Of a stretch of DNA of 64,000 nt, positions 12,138 through 60,396 are shown piece by piece. A program made the position numbers and the translations under genes. Where the stretch lies: the NCBI GenBank assembly GCA_963771175.1, contig CAVYSY010000011.1, forward strand, positions 96,001 through 160,000. Direction: 5' to 3'. This stretch comes from an uncultured delta proteobacterium. Lineage in GTDB: Bacteria > Myxococcota > Myxococcia > Myxococcales > Myxococcaceae. The notes below the pieces were generated by a model. The model saw nothing but the letters and a program-made list of their open reading frames with translations, did not search any database and was not told the DNA's origin. Each line of letters starts with the position of its first letter. Position 1 is the first letter of the stretch.

Positions 12138-15358
<3,221 letters not shown>

Positions 15359-15383
15359 GGGGGCGCCGGGGTGCTTCGGGGCT

Positions 15384-16043
15384 TCAGCGGTGGCACGTGG
15401 TGCAGCTCGTGCGCGAGTGGACGTCGTACTGTGGCCGACGCGAGCGTCTCGGCCGCCTCGGGGTCCTCGGGCGGCTGCCAGGTCATGCAGGTGATGACCT
15501 CGGCCGGACGCAGGTTCGGCTCCGGGTTGCGGTGGCAGTCCAGGCACCACTGCATGGTGAGCGGCGCGGTCTGCTCCACCGCGCGCCATCTGGTCCACGC
15601 GACCGTGGCAGGTGACGCAGCCGACGCCCTTGTTCACGTGGATGGAGTGGTTGAAGTAGACGAAGTCCGGCAGGTTGTGCACGCGGACCCAGGGAATGGG
15701 CTGGTCGGTGAAGAAGGCTTGCCGCACCAGCGTTAGGTACGGGCTCTTGTTCCACACCTGCGCGTGGCAGCTGACATGCACATGGTGGTGGATGGGATGC
15801 CGGCCGACGGGGAGTTCTCCACCGACCAGTGGCAGTAGCGGCAGTCGATCTGCTCGTCACCGGCGTGGTGGCGGTGATCGAACTGGATGGGCTGCTCGAC
15901 GGGGCGGAACTGATCGGTGACGAAGGGGCGAACGCACGTACGCCATCAGGCCGCCGATGGCGATGGCGGGGATCGCGAGAAGGGCCGCGGCAGACAGCCC
16001 GCGACACCGTGTTCGTCCAGCGTGGGAAGAGAGGACCGCTCAT
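15384..16043 (-). CDS. actA: Alternative complex III pentaheme cytochrome c ActA; frameshifted
   Basis: Five CxxCH motifs across frames (CRYCH, C..CH, CVTCH, CLDCH, CTTCHR-stop); PIPWVRVHNLPDFVYFNHSIH. Confidence 0.9.
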
Positions 16044-16170
16044 ACCAGGACCAGGGGGTAGTCAGTGGGCTCCGGAGGACGAAACCGGGAGGACGGTTCG
16101 GCCGGACCGGAGACGGCACAGGGAAACTGGAACAAGAAGCTCATACACGGCGTTGCTGAGGCAGCGACGA

Positions 16171-16188
16171 CTCCTGCCCTGGCAGGAG
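16171..16188. promoter_or_regulatory. Perfect inverted repeat upstream of the act operon (candidate operator)
   Basis: CTCCTGCC-CT-GGCAGGAG, about 130 bp upstream of the actA start. Confidence 0.3.
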
Positions 16189-16541
16189 ACATGCGGACAC
16201 GCCCGACCCCAACCGACTGAGAGTTGCCGTGGGCGGGGTCCCTCCTCATCCCGTCCCAACGCGGCGCGGGACCATCGAGCATCATTATCCAGGTGTCAAC
16301 CTTTCTGTGTCCGCGCGCGGCGAGATACCACGACCCGATGCGTTGTGGCGCGGGTGAAATTGTATCCGGATGATGTTCTCTTCTGGCAGGCGGTAGGGGG
16401 GATGAACCCGGCGGGGCTCAGGCGTCGTCCGGATCGCGCCAGTGCTCGCGGCGGCGCTTGGAGGCACTCACACCTGTTCAAATAGGAGGGCTCTCGTGCC
16501 ATGGGGGGGGGGCCGGGTGGAGACGTGCGAGGATGGGCCCC

Positions 16542-20108: not shown

Positions 20109-21599
20109 ATGAACGCTCAGGAGCGCAAGGCGGCCTACCGCCAGCGCGCGGAGAAGGGCGAGGCGATCCCCGTCTCGGTCGTGCTCCCCGCAGACCTCGA
20201 CACCCCACTGTCCGTCTACCTCAAGCTCGGTGGTGCGCGCGGCTTCGTCCTCGAGTCCTGCCACGGCGGCGAGCGCTTCGGCCGCTACAGCCACGTCGGC
20301 AGCGCGCCCTCCGGCCGGCTCCGGCTCGACCGCAACGGCGCCACCCTCTGGCGCGGCGACCACTCGCGGCGTCTCGAGGGCAAGCCGCTCGACGTGCTGC
20401 GCTCCGTCTGGCGGGAGCACGCCGTCGCCACGCTCCCCGGCGAGCCTCCCTTCGTGGGCGGGCTGGTGGGCTACCTCGGCTACAACTGCATGTCCTGGTT
20501 CGAGCGCCACGTGCCCGACCGGCACGCCCCGGACATCTCCTTCCCCGACTCCGAGTGGCTGCTGTGCGAGGAGTTCGTCACCCACGACTCGCGCACCCAG
20601 ACGCTGCACGCCACCGCCATCGCCCGGCCGTCCCGCCACGGCAGCGTCGCCCAGGCCCTCGCGGACGCCGAGGCCCGTGCCGAGGCGCTCGTCGACCGCC
20701 TGCTGCGGCCGCTGCCCGTGGACGCCTACGTGCCCCATCCGCCCATGCGCGGCGAGGCGGAGGTCTCGGTGCACTGGGACCGCGCCGGCTACGAGGCCGC
20801 CGTGGAGCGCGTGAAGGAGTACATCCGCGCCGGTGACTGCATGCAGGTGGTGCTCGCCCGTCGCTTCGAGGCGCGTGGGGCGCCACCGCCGCTCTCGCTG
20901 TACCGGGCGCTGCGCCGCGTCAACCCCTCGCCGTACCTCTTCCACATCGAGCTGGGCGAGGCGCGCGCGCTGGTGGGCGCCTCGCCGGAGCTGCTGGTGC
21001 AGGTGCGCGACGGGGACGTCGTGGTGCGCCCCATCGCCGGCACCCGGCGCCGCGGCGCCACCGAGGCCGAGGACCTCGCGCTGGAGAAGGAGCTGCTCGC
21101 CGACGAGAAGGAGCGCGCCGAGCACATGATGCTGGTGGACCTCGGCCGCAACGACGTGGGCCGCGTGGCCGCTCCGGGCACGGTGCGCGTCGAGGACCTG
21201 ATGGTCATCGAGCGCTACAGCCACGTGATGCACATCGTCTCGCAGGTGCGCGGCAAGCTCGACGCGAAGTACGACGCGCTCGACGCGCTCGCCTGCACCT
21301 TCCCCGCGGGCACGGTGTCCGGGGCTCCGAAGATCCGCGCGATGCAGATCATCGACGAGCTGGAGCCGACCCGTCGCGGCCCCTACGCGGGCGCGGTGGG
21401 CTACCTGTCCTTCTGCGGCGCGCTGGACCTCGCCATCGCCCTGCGCACCTTCTTCATCGACGGGGACCGCACGATGTGGAAGGCGGGCGCGGGACTCGTG
21501 GCCGACTCGGTGCCCTCGAAGGAGGCGGATGAGACGGAGGCCAAGGCGCGGGCGCTCGCCATGGCCCTGAAGCAGGCGCGTGAGGGAGGTGTGCGGTGA
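20109..21599 (+). CDS. trpE: Anthranilate synthase component I
   Basis: [65 protein letters not shown] before ATG 20109. Confidence 0.95.
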
Positions 21600-22158
21600 T
21601 CCTCGTCATCGACAACTACGACTCGTTCACCTTCAACCTCGTGCAGCTCCTCTACACGCTGGGGGCCGAGGTGAAGGTGGCTCGCAACGATGAGATCGAC
21701 GCCGAGGGCGTGGCGCCTCGGGCGCGTCGCACCTGGTGGTGTCGCCGGGGCCGTGCACGCCGCACGAGGCCGGGGTGAGCATGGCGGCCATCCGCGGCGC
21801 GAAGGTGCCGGTGCTGGGCGTGTGCCTGGGCCACCAGTCCATCGGGGCCGTCTTCGGCGGCAAGGTGGTGCGCGCGCCGGAGCCGGTGCACGGCAAGACG
21901 GCCTCCATCCGCCACGAGGGCCGGAGCATCTTCGAGGGCATGCCCCCGGGCTTCCAGGCGGCGCGCTACCACTCGCTGGTGGTGGAGGCGGCCTCGCTGC
22001 CGGCGGAGCTGGAGGCCACGGCGTGGACGGCGGACGGGCTCATCATGGGGCTGCGGCACCGCGAGCGGCCCGTGGTGGGCGTGCAGTTCCACCCCGAGAG
22101 CGTGCTCACTCCCGAGGGCCCCCGGCTGGTGCGCAACTTCCTCGACGGCCGGCTGTAG
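21596..22158 (+). CDS. trpG: Anthranilate synthase component II; frameshift near 21718
   Basis: [17 protein letters not shown], then [27 protein letters not shown]; 4-bp overlap with trpE. Confidence 0.92.
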
Positions 22159-25130: not shown

Positions 25131-27575
25131 ATGGAGCGCTTCGCCTGGTTGTCGTACCGGAAGCCGGGTCGTGTGCTCGCATGTGTGCTGGTGGTGACGC
25201 TCCTCGCGGGCCTGCTCGCCTCGCGACTCGTCTTCCACGGTTCCTTCGTGGAGCTGCTGCCCGCGCATACCCAGGAGGTGCGAGAGCTGGAGGCCGTGTC
25301 CCATAAGGCGGGAGGGGACGGCTATCTGGTCCTGCGCGCCCGGGGAGCGAGCCCGGAGACCCTGCGCCGTTTCGCCCAGGAGCTGGCGCCGCGGCTGGAG
25401 GCGCTGGAGGAGGTCCGCTACGTCGAGTTCCGCTACGACACGCGCTTCTTCGAGGACCGCGCCCTGCTGCTGCTCTCCGCGGAGCAACTGCGTGCCCTGC
25501 GCGAGGACCTCGAGGGTGTGGTCCGGGCGGAGAAGCTCGCGGCCAACCCGCTCTACGTGTCCCTGGAGGACACCCCTCCGCCGTCGCTCGAGGAGCTCGC
25601 CCGCCGTCATGCGCCTCGCGCGGTCGTGCGCGAGTACTTGAGCTCGGCGGACGGCAGCGAGCTGTACCTGTTCGTGAAGCCCTCCGGCCTCGCCGGGGAC
25701 CTCGTCTTCGCCCAACGGCTGTTGACGCGGGTGCAGGCCACGAGCACGGAAGTGGCACGGGGCTTCCCGGGCGTGGAGACGGACGCCACGGGCGTGCACG
25801 TGCTCCGGCTCGAGGAGGACCGGCGGATGCGCCAGGACCTCACGCGCGCCTCGATGCTCTCGTGCGCCATCGCGGCGCTCATCGTCGTCCTGTCCTGCCG
25901 GCGCCTCTCCGCGCTCCTCGTGGTGTGCGCCCCCGTGGGCGTGGGGCTGCTCATCACCTTCGCGGTGGCGCAGCAGACCATCGGCTACCTCAACATCATC
26001 ACCGGCTTCCTCGTCGCCATCCTCATCGGCCTGGGCATCGAGTACGGCCTCCACCTGGTGCTGCGCTACTCCGAGGAGCGCCGCCAGCATCCCGCCGAGG
26101 AGGCGCTCCGGGAGACCATCCTGGGCACCTGGAAGGGCGCGCTGACGTCGGCCTGCACCAACGCCGCCGCCTTCTCCGCGCTCACGCTCGCCGAGTTCCA
26201 GGCCTTCGCCCAGTTCGGGTGGATCGCCGCCTCGGGCGTGATGCTCACGGTGCTGGCCACGTATCTGCTCGGCCCCGCGCTCCTCGCCCTGACCGAGCGG
26301 TTGCGGCCGCTGCGCGCGGAGGCCCCGCTGCCGGCCCGGCCCTACCGCGTGGCCCCGCGCCTGCCCCGGGCCGTGCTGGTGGGCATCGTCGTGGGGACCG
26401 GCGTGCTGGTGGCCTACTCCGCCTCGGTGGTGCGCTTTATCGGCTTCGAGCCCGACATGCGCAAGCTGCGCGGGGAGTTCGCCGCCACGAAGCTCGATGA
26501 TCGCATCATCTCCCAGCTCGGCCGGCGCCACGCGCCCACCGTCTTCCTCACCCAGGACGTCTCGGAGGCGGGCCGGCTCGCGGCCTCGTTGCGCGAGCTC
26601 GAGGCGCGCCATGGCGAGGCTCGGACGTTCGCGGAGATCGTCTCGCTGAGCGACTTCCTGCCGCGCACCGGCGGAGACGTCGAGGCGGAGCGGGCCGCGC
26701 TGCGTGCGTTCGTCGACCGGCTGCCCGAGAGCGCTCGGAGCTCGGAGCGGCTGCGCCCCGCGCTGAGCCGCCTGGAGACGATGCTGAATGCCCGTCCCTT
26801 CGGCGTGGAGGAGCTGCCCGCCGAGGTGCGCCGTCGCTTCACCGCGCTGGATGGAGAGGGCAACTTCGTGCTCGCCTTCAAGCGCGAGTCGCTCTCCGAC
26901 ACGGACGCGCTGCACCGCTTCGGCGAGCAGATGGGCGAGCTGCGCGAGCTGGCCCGTACCCAGGGGCTCCAGTTCCAGGTGCTCGACTCGAACCTCATCG
27001 CCTACCGCATCTTCGAGCTGGTGCGGAAGGATGGGCCCTGGCTGCTGCTCGCCGCCGGGCTCGCGGTGTTCGCGATGATGGTGATGAGCCTGCGCAGCTT
27101 CCGCCGGGCGGGGCTGGTGGCCGGGCCGCTGTACCTCGGGCTCGCCTGTCTGCCGGCGGCGATGCACCTCTACGGGCTGAAGCTCAACTTCATCAACGCG
27201 GTGGTGCTGCCCAACCTGCTGGCGATCGCCGTGGACAACGCGGTGCACCTCTACCACCGCTACCGCGAGGAGGGGCCGGGCTCACTGCCCCACGTGGTGC
27301 GCACCACGGGCGTCGCGGCGGTGGTGGCCACGCTGTCCAATGCGGCGGGCTACGGCGCGCTGCTCACGGCGCGCCACCCGGGGCTGCGCTCCATCGGGGA
27401 GATTGCCCTCCTGGGCGTCGCCTGTGCCTTCCTGGGCACGACGGTGCTGTTCCCGGCCATCCTCGCGCTGCTCGAGCGCCCTCAATCCGGCGCGCCGGGT
27501 GAGGACGTGGACGAGGGCCTGTCGTTGCCGCTCCCGGTGGAGACGGACGAGGAGGAGGCCCGGCGCTCCGCGTGA
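25131..27575 (+). CDS. MMPL/RND-family transporter (HpnN-like)
   Basis: Two RND halves; ILIGLGIEYGLHL and LLAIAVDNAVHLYHRY TM4/TM10 motifs; large periplasmic loops. Start may be slightly upstream. Confidence 0.88.
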   Translation: MERFAWLSYRKPGRVLACVLVVTLLAGLLASRLVFHGSFVELLPAHTQEVRELEAVSHKAGGDGYLVLRARGASPETLRRFAQELAPRLEALEEVRYVEFRYDTRFFEDRALLLLSAEQLRALREDLEGVVRAEKLAANPLYVSLEDTPPPSLEELARRHAPRAVVREYLSSADGSELYLFVKPSGLAGDLVFAQRLLTRVQATSTEVARGFPGVETDATGVHVLRLEEDRRMRQDLTRASMLSCAIAALIVVLSCRRLSALLVVCAPVGVGLLITFAVAQQTIGYLNIITGFLVAILIGLGIEYGLHLVLRYSEERRQHPAEEALRETILGTWKGALTSACTNAAAFSALTLAEFQAFAQFGWIAASGVMLTVLATYLLGPALLALTERLRPLRAEAPLPARPYRVAPRLPRAVLVGIVVGTGVLVAYSASVVRFIGFEPDMRKLRGEFAATKLDDRIISQLGRRHAPTVFLTQDVSEAGRLAASLRELEARHGEARTFAEIVSLSDFLPRTGGDVEAERAALRAFVDRLPESARSSERLRPALSRLETMLNARPFGVEELPAEVRRRFTALDGEGNFVLAFKRESLSDTDALHRFGEQMGELRELARTQGLQFQVLDSNLIAYRIFELVRKDGPWLLLAAGLAVFAMMVMSLRSFRRAGLVAGPLYLGLACLPAAMHLYGLKLNFINAVVLPNLLAIAVDNAVHLYHRYREEGPGSLPHVVRTTGVAAVVATLSNAAGYGALLTARHPGLRSIGEIALLGVACAFLGTTVLFPAILALLERPQSGAPGEDVDEGLSLPLPVETDEEEARRSA

Positions 27576-27606
27576 CGGCGGAGCGGTGGGGTGTTAGGTG
27601 TCACGC

Positions 27607-28237
27607 ATGAGCGAGCTCGTGACGATCAGGGTGTGGTCGGACTTCGTCTGACCGTGGTGCTACGTCGGCCTCGTGGAGGTCGAGAAGCTGAAGAAGGAGT
27701 ACGACGTCCAGGTGGACTGGCGTCCGTTCTTCCTGCGTCCGGAGACGCCGCCAGAGGGGCTCCCCCTGCCGGCCTACGTGCGCGAGCGGATGAAGGACCC
27801 GAACAACCCGCTCAAGCTGCCGGGCGGCCAGGGCCGGGTTGAAGATGGTGGAGCGCGAGATCATCCCCTCGACGCGCCGCGCCCACGAGGCGGCGGAGTT
27901 CGCGCGGGACGCACGGGCCGCTCGAGCCGTTCCAGGCGGCGCTGCTGCGGCGCTACTGGAGCGAGGGGCAGGACCTCTGGCAGTGGGACACGCTGCGAGG
28001 CGCGGCGCAGGAGGCGGGCCTGGACCCCGACGCGATGCAGCGCGCGGTGGAGCAGGGCCGCTACCGAACAGGTCGTCGAGGACGCCGTCCGCGAGGCGCG
28101 GGAGCTGGGCATCGCAGGCGGTGCCCACCTTCATCCTCGGGGATCGCTACGCCTTCCAGGGCGCCCAGGAGTACGGCGTCTTCCGCCAGGTGATGGAGCG
28201 GCTGGGCGTCAAGCCGCGCGCCGCGCGTCCGGGTTGA
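27607..28237 (+). CDS. DsbA/FrnE-family thiol oxidoreductase with in-frame TGA at the first active-site Cys (probable selenocysteine, UxxC); several downstream frameshifts
   Basis: ATG 27607: MSELVTIRVWSDFV-TGA(27649-51)-PWCYVGLVEVEKLKKEYDVQVDWRPFFLRP; later STRRAHEAAEFA and the VPTF..GAQ cis-Pro motif. Confidence 0.85.
27665..27683 (+). promoter_or_regulatory. Candidate bacterial SECIS hairpin
   Basis: TCGGCCTC-GTG-GAGGTCGA: 8-bp stem with one G-U pair and a loop starting with G, 21 nt after the in-frame UGA. A short lower stem GCT/AGC is possible. Confidence 0.6.
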
Positions 28238-28327
28238 CCGGGCGGCTGTAGGGGACCCCGTGGTGTGAATTTCCGCCCGCCCGGCAACTCGTTCGGGCGG
28301 CGCGGCGCTGGGGTATCCTGGGAGGCC

Positions 28328-28978
28328 ATGCTCTTCGGAAAGAAAGAGCCGCCCACGCGCTCGGAGCTCATCATCGAGGCCGATCGCGCTCGCTCCAAGG
28401 GCAAGCTCAAGAAGGCGATCGCCGGGTATCGCAAGGCGCTGGAACTGGAGCCGAAGGATCCGGCCGTCCACGTGAAGCTGGCGCCGTTGCTGGCTCGGGT
28501 GAACGAGAGCGAGGCCTCGCTCCAGAGCTTCCGTGCGGCGGCCCAAGGGCACCTGGACAAGGGGTTCACGGACAAGGCGCTGGCCGTCTACACGCAGGCG
28601 GCGGAGACGTTCCCGGCGCAGGTGAGCCTCTGGCAGCAGGTGGCTCAGATGAACATCGCGCGGGGGCGCCGCGCGGACGCGGTGAGGATGTTCCTGCGAG
28701 GTCGGATCCTCCTGAGCGGCAAGAACGAGCGCCGGGAGGCCATCGCCCTGCTGAAGGAAGCGCTCGCGCTGGAACCCACGCTCTTCGATCCGAGGCTGGA
28801 TCTGGCGCTGCTGCTGGCTCGGCAGAATCAGCCGGCCGAGGCGATGGCGTTGCTCGAACCGATGGCGAAGCAACTGAAGGGTCGACAGCTCCGGCAGGTG
28901 CGCTGGACGATGCTGCGTGTCTCTCCCGGCCTGGGCTCGGCGTGGCGGTGGCTGCGCGTCGCGCTGGCGAGAGGCTGA
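28328..28978 (+). CDS. Tetratricopeptide-repeat protein
   Basis: AIAGYRKALELEPKDP, AIALLKEALALEP; RBS GGAGG before ATG 28328. Confidence 0.8.
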   Translation: MLFGKKEPPTRSELIIEADRARSKGKLKKAIAGYRKALELEPKDPAVHVKLAPLLARVNESEASLQSFRAAAQGHLDKGFTDKALAVYTQAAETFPAQVSLWQQVAQMNIARGRRADAVRMFLRGRILLSGKNERREAIALLKEALALEPTLFDPRLDLALLLARQNQPAEAMALLEPMAKQLKGRQLRQVRWTMLRVSPGLGSAWRWLRVALARG

Positions 28979-28992
28979 GCGGACTCGGAAGC

Positions 28993-29024
28993 TCCCCTCG
29001 CCCTCTTGACAAGAGGGGAGGGGA
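28993..29024. terminator. Hairpin between convergent TPR gene and trpA
   Basis: TCCCCTCGCCCTCTT-GAC-AAGAGGGGAGGGGA. Confidence 0.6.
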
Positions 29025-29033
29025 ATCAACGGC

Positions 29034-29830
29034 TCAGCGCTTGAGGCCGCGCTTGATCTCCGCGCACACCTGGCGCGCCGCCGCGGGCCCATCGGCCTGG
29101 GCGGCGCGCACGATGGCGCTGCCCACCACCACGCCGTCCGCGTGGGCGGCCACCACCTGGGCCTGCTCGGCGGTGGAGATGCCGAAGCCCGCGACCACCG
29201 GCACCGGCGAGCGGCGCCGCACCAGCTCCAGCCGCTCGGACAGGTCGGCCGGCAGCTCCGCGCGCATGCCCGTCACGCCCGCCACCGACACGCAGTAGAC
29301 GAAGCCACGCGCGTCCTTCGCGATGGACTCCGCGCGCGCCGGCGGCGTGGTGGGCGCGCACAGGGGGATGAGGTCCACCCCTGCCGCGTCGAAGGCCTCG
29401 CGCAGCTCGCGCTCTCCTCGGGAGGCAGGTCCGGCAGGATGGTGCCCGACACGCCGGCTCCCGCGGCCAGCTTCGCGTAGCGCTCCTCGCCCATCGCCAT
29501 CACCACGTTGACGTACGTCATGATGACCAGCGGCGTCTGGGGGCAGCGCTGGCGCACCGCGGGCACCACCTCGTCGCAGCACGCGCTTCAGCGTGGCGCC
29601 GGCCTTCAGCGCCCGCTCGCTGGCGGCCTGGATGACGGGGCCGTCCGCGATGGGGTCGCTGAACGCGACGCCCACCTCCAGCACGTCCGCGCCGCCCTCC
29701 ACCATGGCGCGAACACGTCCACCGAGCGCGAGAGGTCCGGGGTCTCCCGCCATCGCGTAGCGCCACCAGCGCGCACTCGCCGCGCGGCCTGCGCCCGCGC
29801 GAACGCGGCCGCGAGCTCTCCGCGCGCCAT
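29034..29830 (-). CDS. trpA: Tryptophan synthase alpha chain; frameshifted
   Basis: [56 protein letters not shown]. Confidence 0.92.
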
Positions 29831-31051
29831 CACTGCACCTCCTGCTCGCCCGAAGGCGGGCGGGCATGCGCCGTGCTCGCGATGGTGGCCACGTCCTTGT
29901 CGCCGCGGCCCGAGCAGTTGATGACCAGGTGCTTGCCCTGGCCCCAGCTCTCGCGCCAGCTCGCCGGCGCGCGCGAAGGCGTGACAGGTCTCCAGCGCGG
30001 GCAGGATGCCCTCGGTGCGGCACACCTGGTAGAAGGCCTCGAGCGCCTCGTCGTCCGTGGCGGTGCGCACCTCCAGCCGCCCCGTCTTCGCCAGGTGCGC
30101 GAGCTCGGGACCCACGCCCGGGTAGTCCAGGCCCGCGCTGATGGAGTGCGCCTCCTGGATCTGCCCGTGCTCGTCCTGCAGCACCAGCGAGCGCGAGCCG
30201 TGCAGCACGCCCCGGCTGCCCAGCGTCAGCGAGGCGCCGTGCTCCGCGTGTGCAGGCCGTGGCCGCCGGCCTCCACGCCCACCAGCCGCACGCCCGCGTC
30301 CTCGATGAAGGGGTGCAGCACGCCGATGGCGTTCGAGCCGCCGCCGATGCACGCGACGATGGCGTCCGGCAGCCTGCCGAAGGCCGCCTGCGACTGCACG
30401 CGCAGCTCGTGGCCGATGACGGACTGGAAGTCGCGCACGATGGTGGGGTAGGGGTGCGGCCCCGCCGCGCTGCCGATGACGTAGTAGGTGTCCTGCGACG
30501 CTGGGCCACCCAGGTGCGCATGGCCTCGTTCATCGCGTCCTTGAGCGTGCGCGAGCCCGACTCCACCGCGTGCACCGTGGCCCCCAGCGCGCTCATGCGG
30601 AAGACGTTGAGCGCCTGGCGCTCCACGTCCAGCCGCGCCCATGTAGACCTCGCACGGGCAGGCCGAACAGGGCGCACGCGGTGGCGGTGGCCACGCCGTG
30701 CTGGCCCGCGCCCGTCTCCGCGATGATGCGCTTCTTGCCCATGCGCATCGCCAGCAGCACCTGGCCGATGGTGTTGTTGATTTTGTGCGCGCCCGTGTGC
30801 GCGAGGTCCTCGCGCTTGAGCCACACCTGCGGCGCCACCCCACAGCTCGGTGAGCCGGCGCGCGGGCGTCAGCGGCGTCTCGCGGCCCGACGAACTCGCG
30901 CAGCACCTGCGCCACCTGGGCCTGGAAGGCCGGGTCCCTACGGGCCTCGGCGTAGGCCTGCTCCAGCTCCTGCAGGGCCGGAACGAGCGTCTCGGGTACG
31001 TAGCGGCCGCCGTAAGGGCCCGAAGCGGCCAGGGGCGGTTTGCGTATTCAT
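29830..31051 (-). CDS. trpB: Tryptophan synthase beta chain; frameshifted
   Basis: [58 protein letters not shown]. Confidence 0.92.
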
Positions 31052-31060
31052 GGTCGTCCA

Positions 31061-31699
31061 TCACTCCCAGACGCAAGTGCTTCGCGGCGCGCACGAAGGC
31101 GCGCACCGCGTTCGCATTCTTGAGGCCCGGGGCTGACTCCACCCCGCTCGCCACGTCCACGCCGTAGGGCCGGGTGGCCCGCACGGCGGCTTCCAACGTT
31201 GGCCGGGGTGAGGCCACCGGCCACCAGCACCGGCAGCCCGCGTCGCGCGAGCCGCGCCACCAGCGACCAGTCGAAGCCCACGCCCCCGCCGCCGTAGCCC
31301 GGCGCCGCCCCGTCCAGCAGCAGCGCCGCCACGTCGCCCGCGCCCACGTAGGTGCGCGCCCGCTCCACGTCCCGGGCGCCGCGCACCCGCAGCGCCTTGA
31401 TGACGGGCACGCCGTACCCCGAGCAGGCCTCGGGCGGCTCGTCACCGTGGAGCTGCACCGCGGTCAGCCCGCACTCGCGCACGCGGTCGCGGATGAGGTC
31501 CGGCGACTCGTTGACGAACACGCCCACCACCGCGCCCAGCGGCGGGCGCGTGCGCGCCAGCAGCGCCGCCGTCTCCGGCGTCACACAGCGCGGCGAGCGC
31601 GAGTAGAAGTTGAGCCCCAGCGCGTCCGCGCCCGCGTCCCACGCCAGGCGCGCGTCCTCCACGCGGGTGACGCCGCAGATCTTCGACGCGAGCACTCAC
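31061..31699 (-). CDS. trpF: Phosphoribosylanthranilate isomerase; frameshifted near both ends
   Basis: [37 protein letters not shown]. Confidence 0.9.
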
Positions 31700-32494
31700 G
31701 GTTCACCCATGGGCGCGAGCAGCCGAGCCAGGGCTCGACCCGGCTCCGCGTCGCGCAGCAGGGACTCGCCCACCAGCACCGCGTCCGCTCCCGAGGCCCG
31801 TGCCGCCACGAAGTCCTCGCGTGTCTTGAGGCCGCTCTCCGCCACCAGCGCCTTCGCCCTGCTGCGCAGCGTGGGGATGACCTGCAGCGCGGTGGAGATG
31901 TCCGTGCGCAGCGTGGCCAGGTTGCGGTTGTTGATGCCCACCAACTCCGCGCCCGCCTTCAGTGCGCGCTCGGCGTGCTCCGCCGTGTGGGCTTCCACCA
32001 GCGCCGCCACCCGGCAGGCCTTCGCCGTCGCCACCATCTCCGCGAGCAGGCCCGTCCTCCAGCGCGTCCGCGATGAGCAGCACCGCATCCGCACCGAGGG
32101 CGGCGCTCTCCTCCACCTCTTGCGGTGCCACCAGGAAGTCCTTGCGCAGCACTGGCAGCGAGATGGCCGCGCGCACCTGGAGGAGGTCCTCGAGGCTGCC
32201 CCCGAAGTCCACGTCGTCCGTGAGCACGCTCACCGCGCTCGCTCCGGCCGCCTCGTACGCCCGCGCCACCGCCACGAGGTCCTGGTGCGGGAAGTCCCCG
32301 CCCGAGGGACTGCGGCGCTTCACCTCGGCGATGACGTTCACCGGCAGGCCGGCCCGGGGCTGCGTGAGGGCCGCCGTGAAGTCCCGGGAGGCGGGGCGGG
32401 GCGCTCGGGCCACCAGGGGCTTGCGCGCGGCGAGCTCCCGGCGCTTGCGCGCGAAGATGGCCGCGAGTTTGTCCCCCTCGCTCCCGGTGCTCAT
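31696..32494 (-). CDS. trpC: Indole-3-glycerol phosphate synthase; frameshift near 32050
   Basis: [37 protein letters not shown]. Confidence 0.92.
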
Positions 32495-38029: not shown

Positions 38030-38127
38030 GGCGCGACGGTGGCAGCCCACGCGTCAAGCTGTCCAGCGAAGAACCGGGATGCCCCAAGTGCGATCCGCCG
38101 CGGCTGTCATGAGGTAAAAGGTCCGCC

Positions 38128-39861
38128 ATGATCCGCGAACTCCTCTCCCTCGCCGCCGCCGCGGTGCTCCTCGCGAGCCCGGCCGGCGCCGCCGAGAAGC
38201 AGCCCGAGACCTCCCGTATGCCCACTGCCCCCGAGCTCAAGCGCGCCACGGCCCGTTTCGCCCCCGTCGACATCCAGGCCGACGTCTCGAAGCTCCCCGA
38301 GAACGAGCGCCGGGCCCTCGCGAAGATGGTCCAGGCCGCGAAGCTCATGGACTCGCTCTTCCTGCGCCAGGTGTGGGCCGGCAACGAGACGCTCCTGCTC
38401 GACCTGCTGAAGGACAACTCCCCGCTCGGCCGGCGCGGCTGCACGCCTTCCTCCTCAACAAGGGCCCGTGGTCCCGGCTCGACCACAACGCGCCGTTCGT
38501 CCCCGGCGTCGCCGCCGAAGCCCGAGGCCGGCAACTTCTACCCGGCCGGCGCCACCAAGGCCGAGATCGAGGCCTGGGTGAAGTCGCTCCCCGAGGCGCA
38601 GCAGCGCGAGGCCACCGGCTTCTTCACCACCATCCGCCGCGACCCGGACGGCAAGCTCGTCGCCGTGCCCTACAGCGTCGAGTACCAGGGCGAGCTCGCG
38701 CGCGGCGGCGCGAGCTGCTGCGCGAGGCCGCGGCGCTCACCACGCAGCCGACGCTGAAGGCCTTCCTCGAGAAGCGCGCCGAGGCGCTTCCTCACCAACG
38801 ACTACTACGCGAGCGACGTGGCCTGGATGGAGCTCGACGCCAGCGTCGAGCCCACCATCGGGCCCTACGAGGTCTACGAGGACGAGTGGTTCAACTACAA
38901 GGCCGCCTTCGAGGCCTTCATCGCGCGTGCGCGACGACGCGGAGACGGCAGAAGCTCGCGAAGTTCAGCGGCGAGCTGCAGGAGCTCGAGAACACACCTG
39001 CCCATCGACCCGCAGCTGCGCAACCCGAAGCTCGGCGCGCTCGCGCCCATCCGCGTGGTCAACAGCATCTTCTCCTCGGGCGACGCCAACCGCGGCGTGC
39101 AGACCGCGGCCTTCAACCTGCCCAACGACGAGCGCGTCGGCGGCCGAGAAGGGCACCAAGCGCGTGATGCTCAAGAACGTCCAGGAGGCCAAGTTCAACC
39201 GAGGTGCTGATGCCCATCACCGCAGGTGGCGCTCGCCCCGACGGACCGCAAGGACGTCTCCTTCGACGCCTTCTTCACCCACATCCTCATGCACGAGCTG
39301 ATGCACGGCCTCGGGCCCCACAACATCACCGTGGAGCGGCAAGCAGACCACGGTGCGCCAGGCGCTCCAGGACGTCCTACCAGCGCCATCGAGGAGGCCA
39401 AGGCCGACATCTCCGGCCTCTGGGCCCTGCAGCACCTCGTGGACAAGGGCGTCATCGGCAAGGACCTGGAGCGCACCATGTACACCACGTTCCTGGCCTC
39501 GGCGTTCCGCTCCATCCGCTTCGGCATCAACGAGGCGCACGGCAAGGGCATGGCGCTGCAGCTCAACCACTTCCTCGACACCGGCGCGGTGGTGGTGAAC
39601 AAGGACGGCACCTTCGCCGTGGTGCCGGGGAAGATTCGCGAGTCCGTCACCTCCCTGACGAAGCAGCTCATGGAGCTGCAGGCCGCCGGCGACCGCGCCT
39701 CCGCCGAGTCGCTGCTCGCGAAGATGGGCGTGGTGCGTCCCGAGGTGAAGCGCGTGCTGGACAGGCTGGAGAAGGTCCCCGTGGACATCGAGCCGCGCTA
39801 CGTCACCGCCGAGAAGCTCGCGCTGGAGCTCGGCGGGGCCTCGGAGCCGGCGAAGAAGTAG
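38128..39861 (+). CDS. Secreted M49-family (dipeptidyl peptidase III-like) metallopeptidase; several frameshifts
   Basis: Signal peptide; NKGPWSRLD, IGPYEVYED, QTAAFNLPNDE, HELMHGLGP, EEAKADI. Confidence 0.85.
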
Positions 39862-59185: not shown

Positions 59186-60396
59186 TCAAATTTCCAACAG
59201 GAGCCGAGTGGGGTCCTCGATGCAGTCCTTGATGCGAATGAGGAACTGCACCGCCTCGCGACCGTCGATGAGCCGGTGGTCGTAGGAGAGGGCGAGGTAC
59301 ATGATGGGGCGGATGACGACCTGGCCGTTGCGGGCCACGGGGCGCTCCACGATGTTGTGCATCCCCAGGATGCCCGTCTGCGGCGGGTTGAGGATGGGGG
59401 TGGAGAGCATCGAGCCGAAGATGCCGCCGTTGGTGATGGTGAAGGTGCCGCCCTGCAGCTCGGCGAGCGTGAGCTTGTCGTTGCGAGCGCGCACGCCGTA
59501 GTCGCCGATCTTCTTCTCCATGTCGGCCAGGGACAGGCGTGTCCGCGTCGCGGACGACGGGCACCACGAGGCCGCGCGAGCCGCTCACCGCCACGCCGAT
59601 GTCGTAGTAGTGCTTGAAGACGACGTCGTCGCCGTCGATCTCCGCGTTGACCTGGGGGAAGGCCTTGAGGGCCTCGACGGCCGCGCGCACGAAGAAGCTC
59701 ATGAAGCCGAGCTTGACGCCGTGCTTGGCCTGGAACTTCTCGTTGTACTGCTTGCGCAGGTCCATCACCGCGCCCATGTCCACCTCGTTGAAGGTGGTGA
59801 GGATGGCGGCGGTGGACTGGGCCTGGAGCGAGGCGCTCGGCGACGCGGCGGCGCAGCGGCGTCATCTTCACGCGCTCCTCGCGGTCGGCGCGCGGGCGCG
59901 GGCCGGAGGGAGCGGGGGCCGGAGCCGGAGCGCGCTGGGCGGGAGCCTCGGCCGGGCGGTTGAGCTGACCGAGCACGTCCTCCTTGGTGATGCGGCCGCC
60001 GGTGCCGGAGCCCTTGAGCTGGCCCACGTCCACCTTGTTCTCCTCGGCGATCTTCCGGGCGGTGGGCGTGATGCGCGCATCGGTCGCGGCGGACGCCGCG
60101 GCGACGGGGGCGGGAGCAGCGGCGGGAGCGGGAGTGGCCGTCGGAGCAGAGGCAGCGGCCCCGGCCTCGATGGTGCCCAGCACGTCGCCCACGCGCACCT
60201 TGTCGCCCTCCTGGAAGGCGATGGTGAGCAGGGCACCGCCGGCGGGAGAGGGCACGTCGACGGTGACCTTGTCGGTCTCGAGGACGACGAGCGGCTCGTC
60301 CGCGGTGACGGCGTCACCCTTCTTCTTGTTCCACTTTCCGACGACGGCTTCAGTGATGGACTCGCCCAGGGGCGGGACTTTCAGTTCAACGGCCAT
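59186..60396 (-). CDS. sucB: 2-oxoglutarate dehydrogenase E2 dihydrolipoamide succinyltransferase; frameshifts near 59830 and 59535
   Basis: Lipoyl ETDKV; E3-binding [36 protein letters not shown]. Confidence 0.95.

Follow-up and report, generated by a model that had tools for sequence, protein, structure and literature searches.

In the E. coli gene fdhF, the SECIS element is a hairpin located within the coding sequence directly after the UGA codon, and a G/U in its apical loop is presented to SelB; bacterial SECIS elements obey a distance rule of 16–37 nt from the UGA. A G in the apical loop is also given as a feature of the bacterial SECIS in a figure legend of the paper (PMC1088965) in which a selenoprotein family from the Sargasso Sea metagenome, in print since 2005, was named 'DsbA-like protein' (COG2761, with the motif UxxC). 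A DsbA-like selenoprotein is listed in Anaeromyxobacter dehalogenans and three other genomes (PMC1794560) and is counted in 41 organisms (PMC5029168), and the family appears as 'DsbA-like protein form 1, PF01323, UxxC' in a 2026 review (PMC13188914). The statement in the first-pass annotation of this DNA, that DsbA-like selenoproteins had been reported in other bacteria, agrees with the literature (PMC1088965, PMC1794560, PMC13188914). In the full-text literature on myxobacterial selenoproteins, no discussion of a DsbA-like gene in Myxococcaceae or Archangiaceae was found; per-organism lists may include it, and the species tables of PMC5029168 give selenoprotein numbers per organism only.

Here we describe a gene of this kind at positions 27607–28237 of the window (the whole stretch of DNA that was analysed, 64,000 nt in length). 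We consider it highly probable that the gene encodes a cytoplasmic FrnE-type protein of the DsbA family with selenocysteine (Sec) as the nucleophile of a UPWC motif, its UGA codon being recoded by means of a SECIS hairpin. Compared with the DsbA-like selenoproteins of form 1 (COG2761, PF01323, UxxC), the window gene has the same domain, the same UxxC motif with Sec as its first residue, and a downstream SECIS-like hairpin with a G in its loop. There is no difference in kind, and the gene represents an unannotated instance of the family in an aerobic Archangium-like soil myxobacterium.

Results and discussion

The gene and its in-frame TGA codon

The extent of the DsbA-like (FrnE-type) selenoprotein gene was defined from translations, Pfam matches and an alignment to seven intact relatives. 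It lies on the forward strand, on which all the other features of the gene described here are also located, and runs from the ATG at 27607–27609 to the stop codon TGA at 28235–28237. From the ATG, the peptide MSELVTIRVWSDFV is encoded, and codon 15 is the TGA at 27649–27651. This is followed by CCG TGG TGC TAC GTC GGC (PWCYVG), in frame with the GTG at 27673, which is the start of the ORF in the mechanical ORF list; the in-frame peptide after the TGA is PWCYVGLVEVEK. Sequence and translation thus reproduce what the first-pass annotation had read here, namely an ATG at 27607, the TGA, and PWCYVG continuing in frame.

The TGA is read as Sec (U15), the first residue of the putative UPWC redox motif. 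The predicted resolving Cys of UxxC (C18) is encoded by the TGC at 27658–27660, whose TG (columns 16–17) is invariant in the alignments of both the TGA forms and the Cys forms. Six nucleotides 5' of the ATG there is a Shine–Dalgarno-like AGGTG (27596–27600), which probably acts in ribosome binding; it is part of the upstream block GTGTTAGGT, which is kept in all eight aligned sequences of the Archangium group (alignment columns 3–10 invariant).

TGA and Cys forms among the relatives

A profile search of genome contigs, with an alignment of 58 of the 99 database relatives described below as the query, returned 80 Myxococcota loci. Two of these end before the N-terminus, and the counts rest on the other 78. 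The codon homologous to 27649–27651 was TGA in 51 of the 78 loci and TGC or TGT in the remaining 27; neither TAA nor TAG was found at this codon in any of the 78. Judging by record titles, the 51 TGA loci come from 19 isolate genomes and 32 metagenome-assembled genomes, and include the complete chromosomes of Archangium gephyra SDU49, Corallococcus exercitus SDU142 and C. coralloides KYC2213. None of them contains a further in-frame stop codon from −30 to +540 nt, and peptide conservation extends to either side of the TGA (WSDFV-U-PWCYVG). Where the window reads SDFV-TGA-PWC, the 27 Cys loci read SDFV or SDYV, TGC or TGT, and PWC. The TGA does, as had been proposed from the window alone, take the place of the first (nucleophilic) Cys of CPWC, and the distribution of the two codons among the 78 loci is the standard comparative signature of a predicted selenoprotein gene with Cys homologues.

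The Cys-form orthologues (CPWC), found in Myxococcus, Citreicoccus and some Corallococcus, are colinear with the TGA forms, encode proteins 75–80% identical to them, and occupy the same kind of locus; they differ in having TGC or TGT instead of TGA, and in that the hairpin described below is mostly eroded. In the Cys forms of Corallococcus praedator and C. terminator (loci L031 and L033), the full hairpin is still present, and judging from their sequences these two look like recent Sec-to-Cys conversions.

A quick maximum-likelihood tree of the 78 proteins was calculated after masking the column that holds Sec or Cys. At least eight changes between Sec and Cys are needed on this tree, at least five of which are forced by starred (well-supported) branches, compared with about 22.7 when the labels were shuffled. 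TGA forms are present in both main clades, accounting for 11 of the 21 rows in one and 40 of the 57 rows in the other.

The tree also drew attention to some labels. The loci L024 ('Comamonas sp. KCTC 72670') and L019 ('Proteobacteria bacterium') carry a Cys-form gene nested among Myxococcus sequences, so that their labels look wrong or their assemblies contaminated. Locus L020 (Corallococcus terminator BB12-2) groups with Myxococcus (L014, L021, L022), apart from the other C. terminator locus, L033.

It should be noted that P0002 (Archangium violaceum), the closest full-length database protein, shows Cys at position 15, and this was counted against the Sec reading. Two other full-length database proteins, P0003 and P0005, also have Cys at this position, and yet in all three the peptide encoded by the hairpin, GLVEVEKLKKEYDV, is the one typical of TGA forms. 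Either Cys was acquired very recently in these proteins, or the records themselves have U.

The SECIS-like hairpin

A SECIS-like hairpin was located at 27659–27688 from folds, pair counts and RNAalifold. It has a core 8-bp stem (27665–27672 with 27676–27683), a GUG loop (27673–27675), and an imperfect extension of four pairs outside the core. The core, UCGGCCUC-GUG-GAGGUCGA (27665–27683), is the predicted minimum-energy element in folds of both 62 nt and 121 nt, and the G of the loop lies 21 nt 3' of the UGA. The GTG at 27673–27675, which the ORF caller took as the start of a truncated gene, is the apical loop of this hairpin.

Taken on its own, the folding of the window sequence is within chance (z −1.02, with 36 of 200 shuffles as good, and z −1.71, with 9 of 200, in the two folds), and about 1.7% of the positions in the window have a similarly spaced 8-bp hairpin whose loop begins with G. 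What goes beyond chance is seen when the relatives are compared, not in the window sequence alone. For this comparison, 36 TGA-form sequences (35 of them distinct) and 25 Cys-form sequences were aligned from −6 to +53 relative to the codon. When pairs were counted for the structure given by the window's own fold, and hence derived from one of the sequences, 272 of the 280 core-stem cells (97%) were paired in the 35 TGA forms vs 147 of 200 (73.5%) in the 25 Cys forms, a contrast inflated by the kinship of the TGA forms with one another. For the whole 12-pair structure, the corresponding values were 92.4% and 76.7%. If the partner strand was slid, pairing in the TGA forms dropped to 33–48%, and none of 500 shuffles matched the observed value. 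As to the eight unpaired core cells in TGA forms, five merely widen the loop from 3 to 5 nt. The first base of the loop is G in all 36 TGA-form sequences, the second is U or G, and the RNAalifold consensus recovered the same helix independently.

Most stem pairs are invariant, and direct covariation is accordingly confined to two pairs. One is clear: at columns 27/37, C-G is replaced by U-A in six sequences, a synonymous Gly change (GGC to GGU) compensating a Val-to-Ile change. A similar compensatory change is found at columns 18/45 in three sequences. In addition, nucleotide diversity between +3 and +42 at codon positions 1/2/3 is 0.095/0.117/0.289 in the TGA forms vs 0.271/0.207/0.338 in the Cys forms, while upstream and further downstream the two groups are alike.

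The hairpin thus behaves as a SECIS would in these alignments, being preserved where the codon is TGA and decayed where it encodes Cys, and the description in the first-pass annotation of a SECIS-like hairpin, its G-first loop lying 21 nt beyond the UGA, has stood up to folding, to differential conservation and to the search for covariation. The distance to the loop, the invariant G (36/36) and the 97% pairing of the core stem all fit a bacterial SECIS. Like the SECIS of E. coli fdhF, the hairpin is intracoding, is placed directly 3' of the UGA, and has an apical G/U loop; unlike it, it has a loop of only 3 nt (5 nt in five sequences) of the type G[U/G]N, its sequence is unrelated, and its link to SelB is a predicted one. 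A search of the whole window against Rfam gave no family at gathering thresholds, and the region 27550–27800 gave only a chance match to Yfr1 (E 7.7).

A second 8-bp hairpin is present at 27636–27654, GGUCGGAC-UUC-GUCUGACC, with the UGA inside its 3' arm. It was discarded as a feature: it contains an internal mismatch in most TGA forms, and its arms are set by the WSDFV codons. Its cells are paired in 88 of 104 cases in TGA forms vs 81 of 128 in Cys forms, and it is probably a by-product of coding.

In the mechanism that we propose, the UGA at 27649–27651 would be recoded co-translationally as Sec rather than acting as a stop codon. The hairpin at 27659–27688 would serve as the SECIS, recruiting SelB with Sec-tRNA(Sec) to the ribosome, and the UGA would in this way be read as Sec.

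Selenocysteine machinery

No tRNA was detected by ARAGORN in the 64-kb window, and no tRNA-Sec in the first 60 of the 80 loci (L001–L060). Similarly, no Pfam match to the Sec pathway was obtained in the 52 stretches scanned, which cover part of the window. For related genera, the supplementary file 2 of PMC5029168 gives '+' for SelD, SelA and SelB alike in five Myxococcus entries, Corallococcus coralloides DSM 2259, Cystobacter fuscus DSM 2262 and Stigmatella aurantiaca, and file 3 of the same paper assigns one to three known selenoproteins to each of these entries (PMC5029168). In addition, one tRNA for selenocysteine is reported for Archangium gephyra DSM 2261 (PMC5441343). Judged by the gene itself, the Archangium-like source organism very probably uses selenocysteine.

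These data bear on whether the UGA might be read through without the Sec machinery, a suppressor or near-cognate tRNA inserting, for instance, Cys or Trp. The sequence of the gene alone is compatible with such a read-through, and the first-pass annotation had also allowed for Cys. However, the TGA forms in particular have kept a stem-loop at the distance of a SECIS, SelA, SelB and SelD are listed for related genera (PMC5029168) and a tRNA-Sec is reported for Archangium gephyra (PMC5441343), and the site is that of a redox Cys, which is a typical place for Sec (PMC1088965). Decoding by such a tRNA is therefore very unlikely, and incorporation of Sec remains the preferred reading. We infer the use of SelB and tRNA(Sec) in the source genome, the presence of selenium in the protein, and a thiol–disulfide substrate.

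Protein family and predicted fold

When the TGA is read through, the N-terminal 71 residues match the Pfam family DSBA (PF01323) over profile positions 1–57, with E 2e-13 and 51 bits (cut-off 25.6); a further piece, encoded by 27909–28067, matches the same family with E 1.2e-4. NCBIfam has no model at cut-off for the family, the sub-threshold match being NF041057 (43 bits vs 190). A family profile search led to FrnE of Deinococcus radiodurans (5cnw, E 6.5e-27).

An AlphaFold model was made, with the 58-sequence alignment, for P0002, the A. violaceum protein mentioned above. The mean pLDDT of the model was 93.6, and residue 15 was placed between a strand (5–11) and a helix (16–31), which is, in the model, the classic redox position of the thioredoxin fold. 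The best structural matches of the model are FrnE entries (5co3, TM 0.84, rmsd 2.9, 34% identity). In thioredoxin-fold oxidoreductases, a Pro loop in the cis conformation faces the redox motif. This conserved loop is present in the window protein as AVPTF (in frame 2), and all 58 aligned sequences have its V171 and P172 unchanged. A role in thiol–disulfide exchange, with Sec as the attacking residue, would be in keeping with these features.

Strand 1 of the model begins at residue 5, and the four residues that precede it leave therefore no room for a signal peptide, which suggests that the protein is cytoplasmic. In this it would differ from the periplasmic DsbA of the E. coli type, which carries an N-terminal export signal peptide. 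The full-length relatives are about 205–208 residues long and have Cys only at positions 15 and 18; the C-terminus of the window protein (...GVKPRAARPG) also contains no Cys. The closest solved structure, FrnE of D. radiodurans (PDB 5cnw, 5co3, 5xwh), has in common with the myxobacterial proteins the DsbA fold, the helical insertion and the N-terminal redox motif, but its redox motif contains Cys, not Sec, and its 260-residue chain extends into a C-terminal tail with Cys239 (from the entry title 'C239S mutant'), which the myxobacterial proteins do not have.

Frameshifts and assembly quality

As assembled, the gene is translated in the frame order 1, 2, 3, 1, 2, as a result of four single-base insertions. 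These are a T at 27818 (frame 1 to 2; column 230, a gap in 7/7 relatives), a C at 27910 (frame 2 to 3; alignment column 322), a base at 28064 that is ambiguous within 28064–28068 (frame 3 to 1; column 479), and a G at 28114 (frame 1 to 2; column 526), the last three being likewise unique to the window. Exactly these four insertions separate the window gene from the alignment of seven Archangium/Vitiosangium relatives, all of which lack them. The first-pass annotation had taken the other defects of the window for indels and had argued that the TGA was not the same kind of artefact; both statements hold, considering that the four insertions are confined to the window and the TGA is common to 51 other loci.

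The closest relative with shared context is locus L053, which is 92% identical to the window over 12.6 kb. With respect to L053, the window shows 30 single-base insertions and 11 single-base deletions. The insertions are clustered, 28 of the 30 being found within 27818–32048 (about one per 130 aligned bases) and two in the other ~8.9 kb. Within this stretch, L053 has intact trpA, trpB, trpF and trpC genes, which are in pieces in the window. Just upstream of the DsbA-like gene, a 2.9-kb MMPL gene is open throughout, with no in-frame stop, and contains two single-base gaps relative to L053 (24944 and 25073).

Given that the gene lies in a stretch so dense in errors, and that 27 of the 78 relatives have the Cys form, one might suppose that the TGA itself arose by faulty base calling or assembly, or as a new nonsense mutation, and that the true codon is TGC or TGT. 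This appears hardly credible, as the same TGA is found at the 51 other loci, including all nine Archangium/Vitiosangium loci nearest to the window in the tree, and as the defects of the window with respect to its relatives are insertions and deletions, whereas its TGA codon is identical to theirs.

If, on the other hand, the four insertions were real, the copy in the window would be a pseudogene: the lineage would have the Sec gene, and this strain would carry a truly inactivated copy of it. Such decay would fit with the fact that all four insertions are window-only. Nevertheless, we regard it as unlikely. The rate of about one single-base insertion per 130 bp runs on through trpA, trpB, trpF and trpC, which are whole in L053, and the MMPL gene upstream is open, its two single-base gaps notwithstanding; moreover, a poorly polished segment is likelier than the joint decay of five adjacent genes, four of which serve tryptophan synthesis. 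Most likely, the four frameshifts in the DsbA-like gene are local assembly errors and are outside the biology, and the stretch 27.8–32.0 kb should be marked as a low-quality part of the assembly.

Judging from frame changes in the GC3 plot (12900–16400, 21580–21700 and 59584–60386) and from truncated Pfam matches (an ActB-like Fe-S protein, trpG with the profile starting from position 42, and sucB from position 117), the window has indel defects in further places as well. The genes cut elsewhere in the window include trpG, sucB and a fatty-acid desaturase gene. A single gene at 38113–39861 (forward strand), with a zinc-protease-like motif (HELMHGLGPH), is interrupted by TGAs at 38755–38757 and 39208–39210. 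These two in-frame TGAs were considered as Sec codons and rejected, because reading through them gives frameshifted, nonsensical stretches of a broken gene and not redox motifs; they mark paired frameshifts. No Pfam match was obtained for the three pieces of this gene.

Genomic context

A conserved operon partner was sought in the loci of the relatives, and only the downstream TPR gene (28265–28978) was found in common, with L001, L003, L004 and L005. It is absent from L053; the corresponding stretch of the window, 28243–28993, which follows the DsbA-like gene, has no counterpart in that locus. Conversely, L053 contains between its MMPL and DsbA-like genes a 973-aa ORF with PD40 repeats (4298–7787 of L053), which is absent from the window (27589/27588).

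Annotation of the family in protein databases

A protein search with the N-terminal 71 residues as the query retrieved 99 relatives (clusters). CP[WFY]C is present near the N-terminus in 34 of them, and one is something else. The other 64 are without the N-terminus, and hence the active site; 56 of these begin at the residue corresponding to GTG 27673 or at the preceding codon, and eight further in. Such starts are typical of gene callers faced with a stop codon just upstream, and the expectation that standard annotation would truncate the gene was correct.

The same 56 database entries could be taken to indicate that GTG 27673 is the true start, and that the product is a DsbA-fold protein of about 186 residues without an active site. 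We find this extremely improbable. In all 51 TGA loci, the 22 codons upstream of the GTG show conservation at the protein level, and they are colinear with the N-terminus of the Cys forms; in the model, strand 1 and the first part of helix 1 are formed by them; and the GTG itself coincides with the loop of the hairpin. Translation from ATG 27607 through the UGA is the reading to be preferred.

Conclusions

Judged by its sequence, the window gene has every feature by which the DsbA-like form 1 family is recognized: the PF01323 domain, a UGA aligned with the first Cys of the homologues, conservation of this UGA with coding sequence on both sides, and a hairpin of the SECIS type. The proposal that this myxobacterium recodes UGA at the catalytic Cys is supported by the conservation of the TGA, by the pairing of Sec and Cys orthologues, by the differential conservation of the hairpin, and by the fold. 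The TGA is very probably a real Sec codon, but the family has already been described, so that the gene itself is ordinary.

The finding is mainly a matter of annotation and leaves the knowledge of selenoproteins unchanged. We recommend annotating the gene with ATG 27607 as its start and Sec at codon 15, rather than from GTG 27673 or, on account of the TGA, as a pseudogene. The same correction of the start is due for most of the relatives in public protein sets (64 of the 99 clusters).

The only part that might repay further study is the switching between Sec and Cys in Myxococcota. We suggest tentatively, as something quite possible though short of probable, that at least eight switches between Sec and Cys have taken place in the FrnE-like gene within this phylum, as sampled by 78 genomes, with fresh Cys converts keeping the SECIS and older ones being without it. 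If this is true, the switching has been hidden by truncated database entries, which make up 64 of the 99 found here. Repeated switching would then offer a natural time series of the decay of a SECIS located in a coding region, and would show when an aerobic soil predator prefers Sec over Cys.
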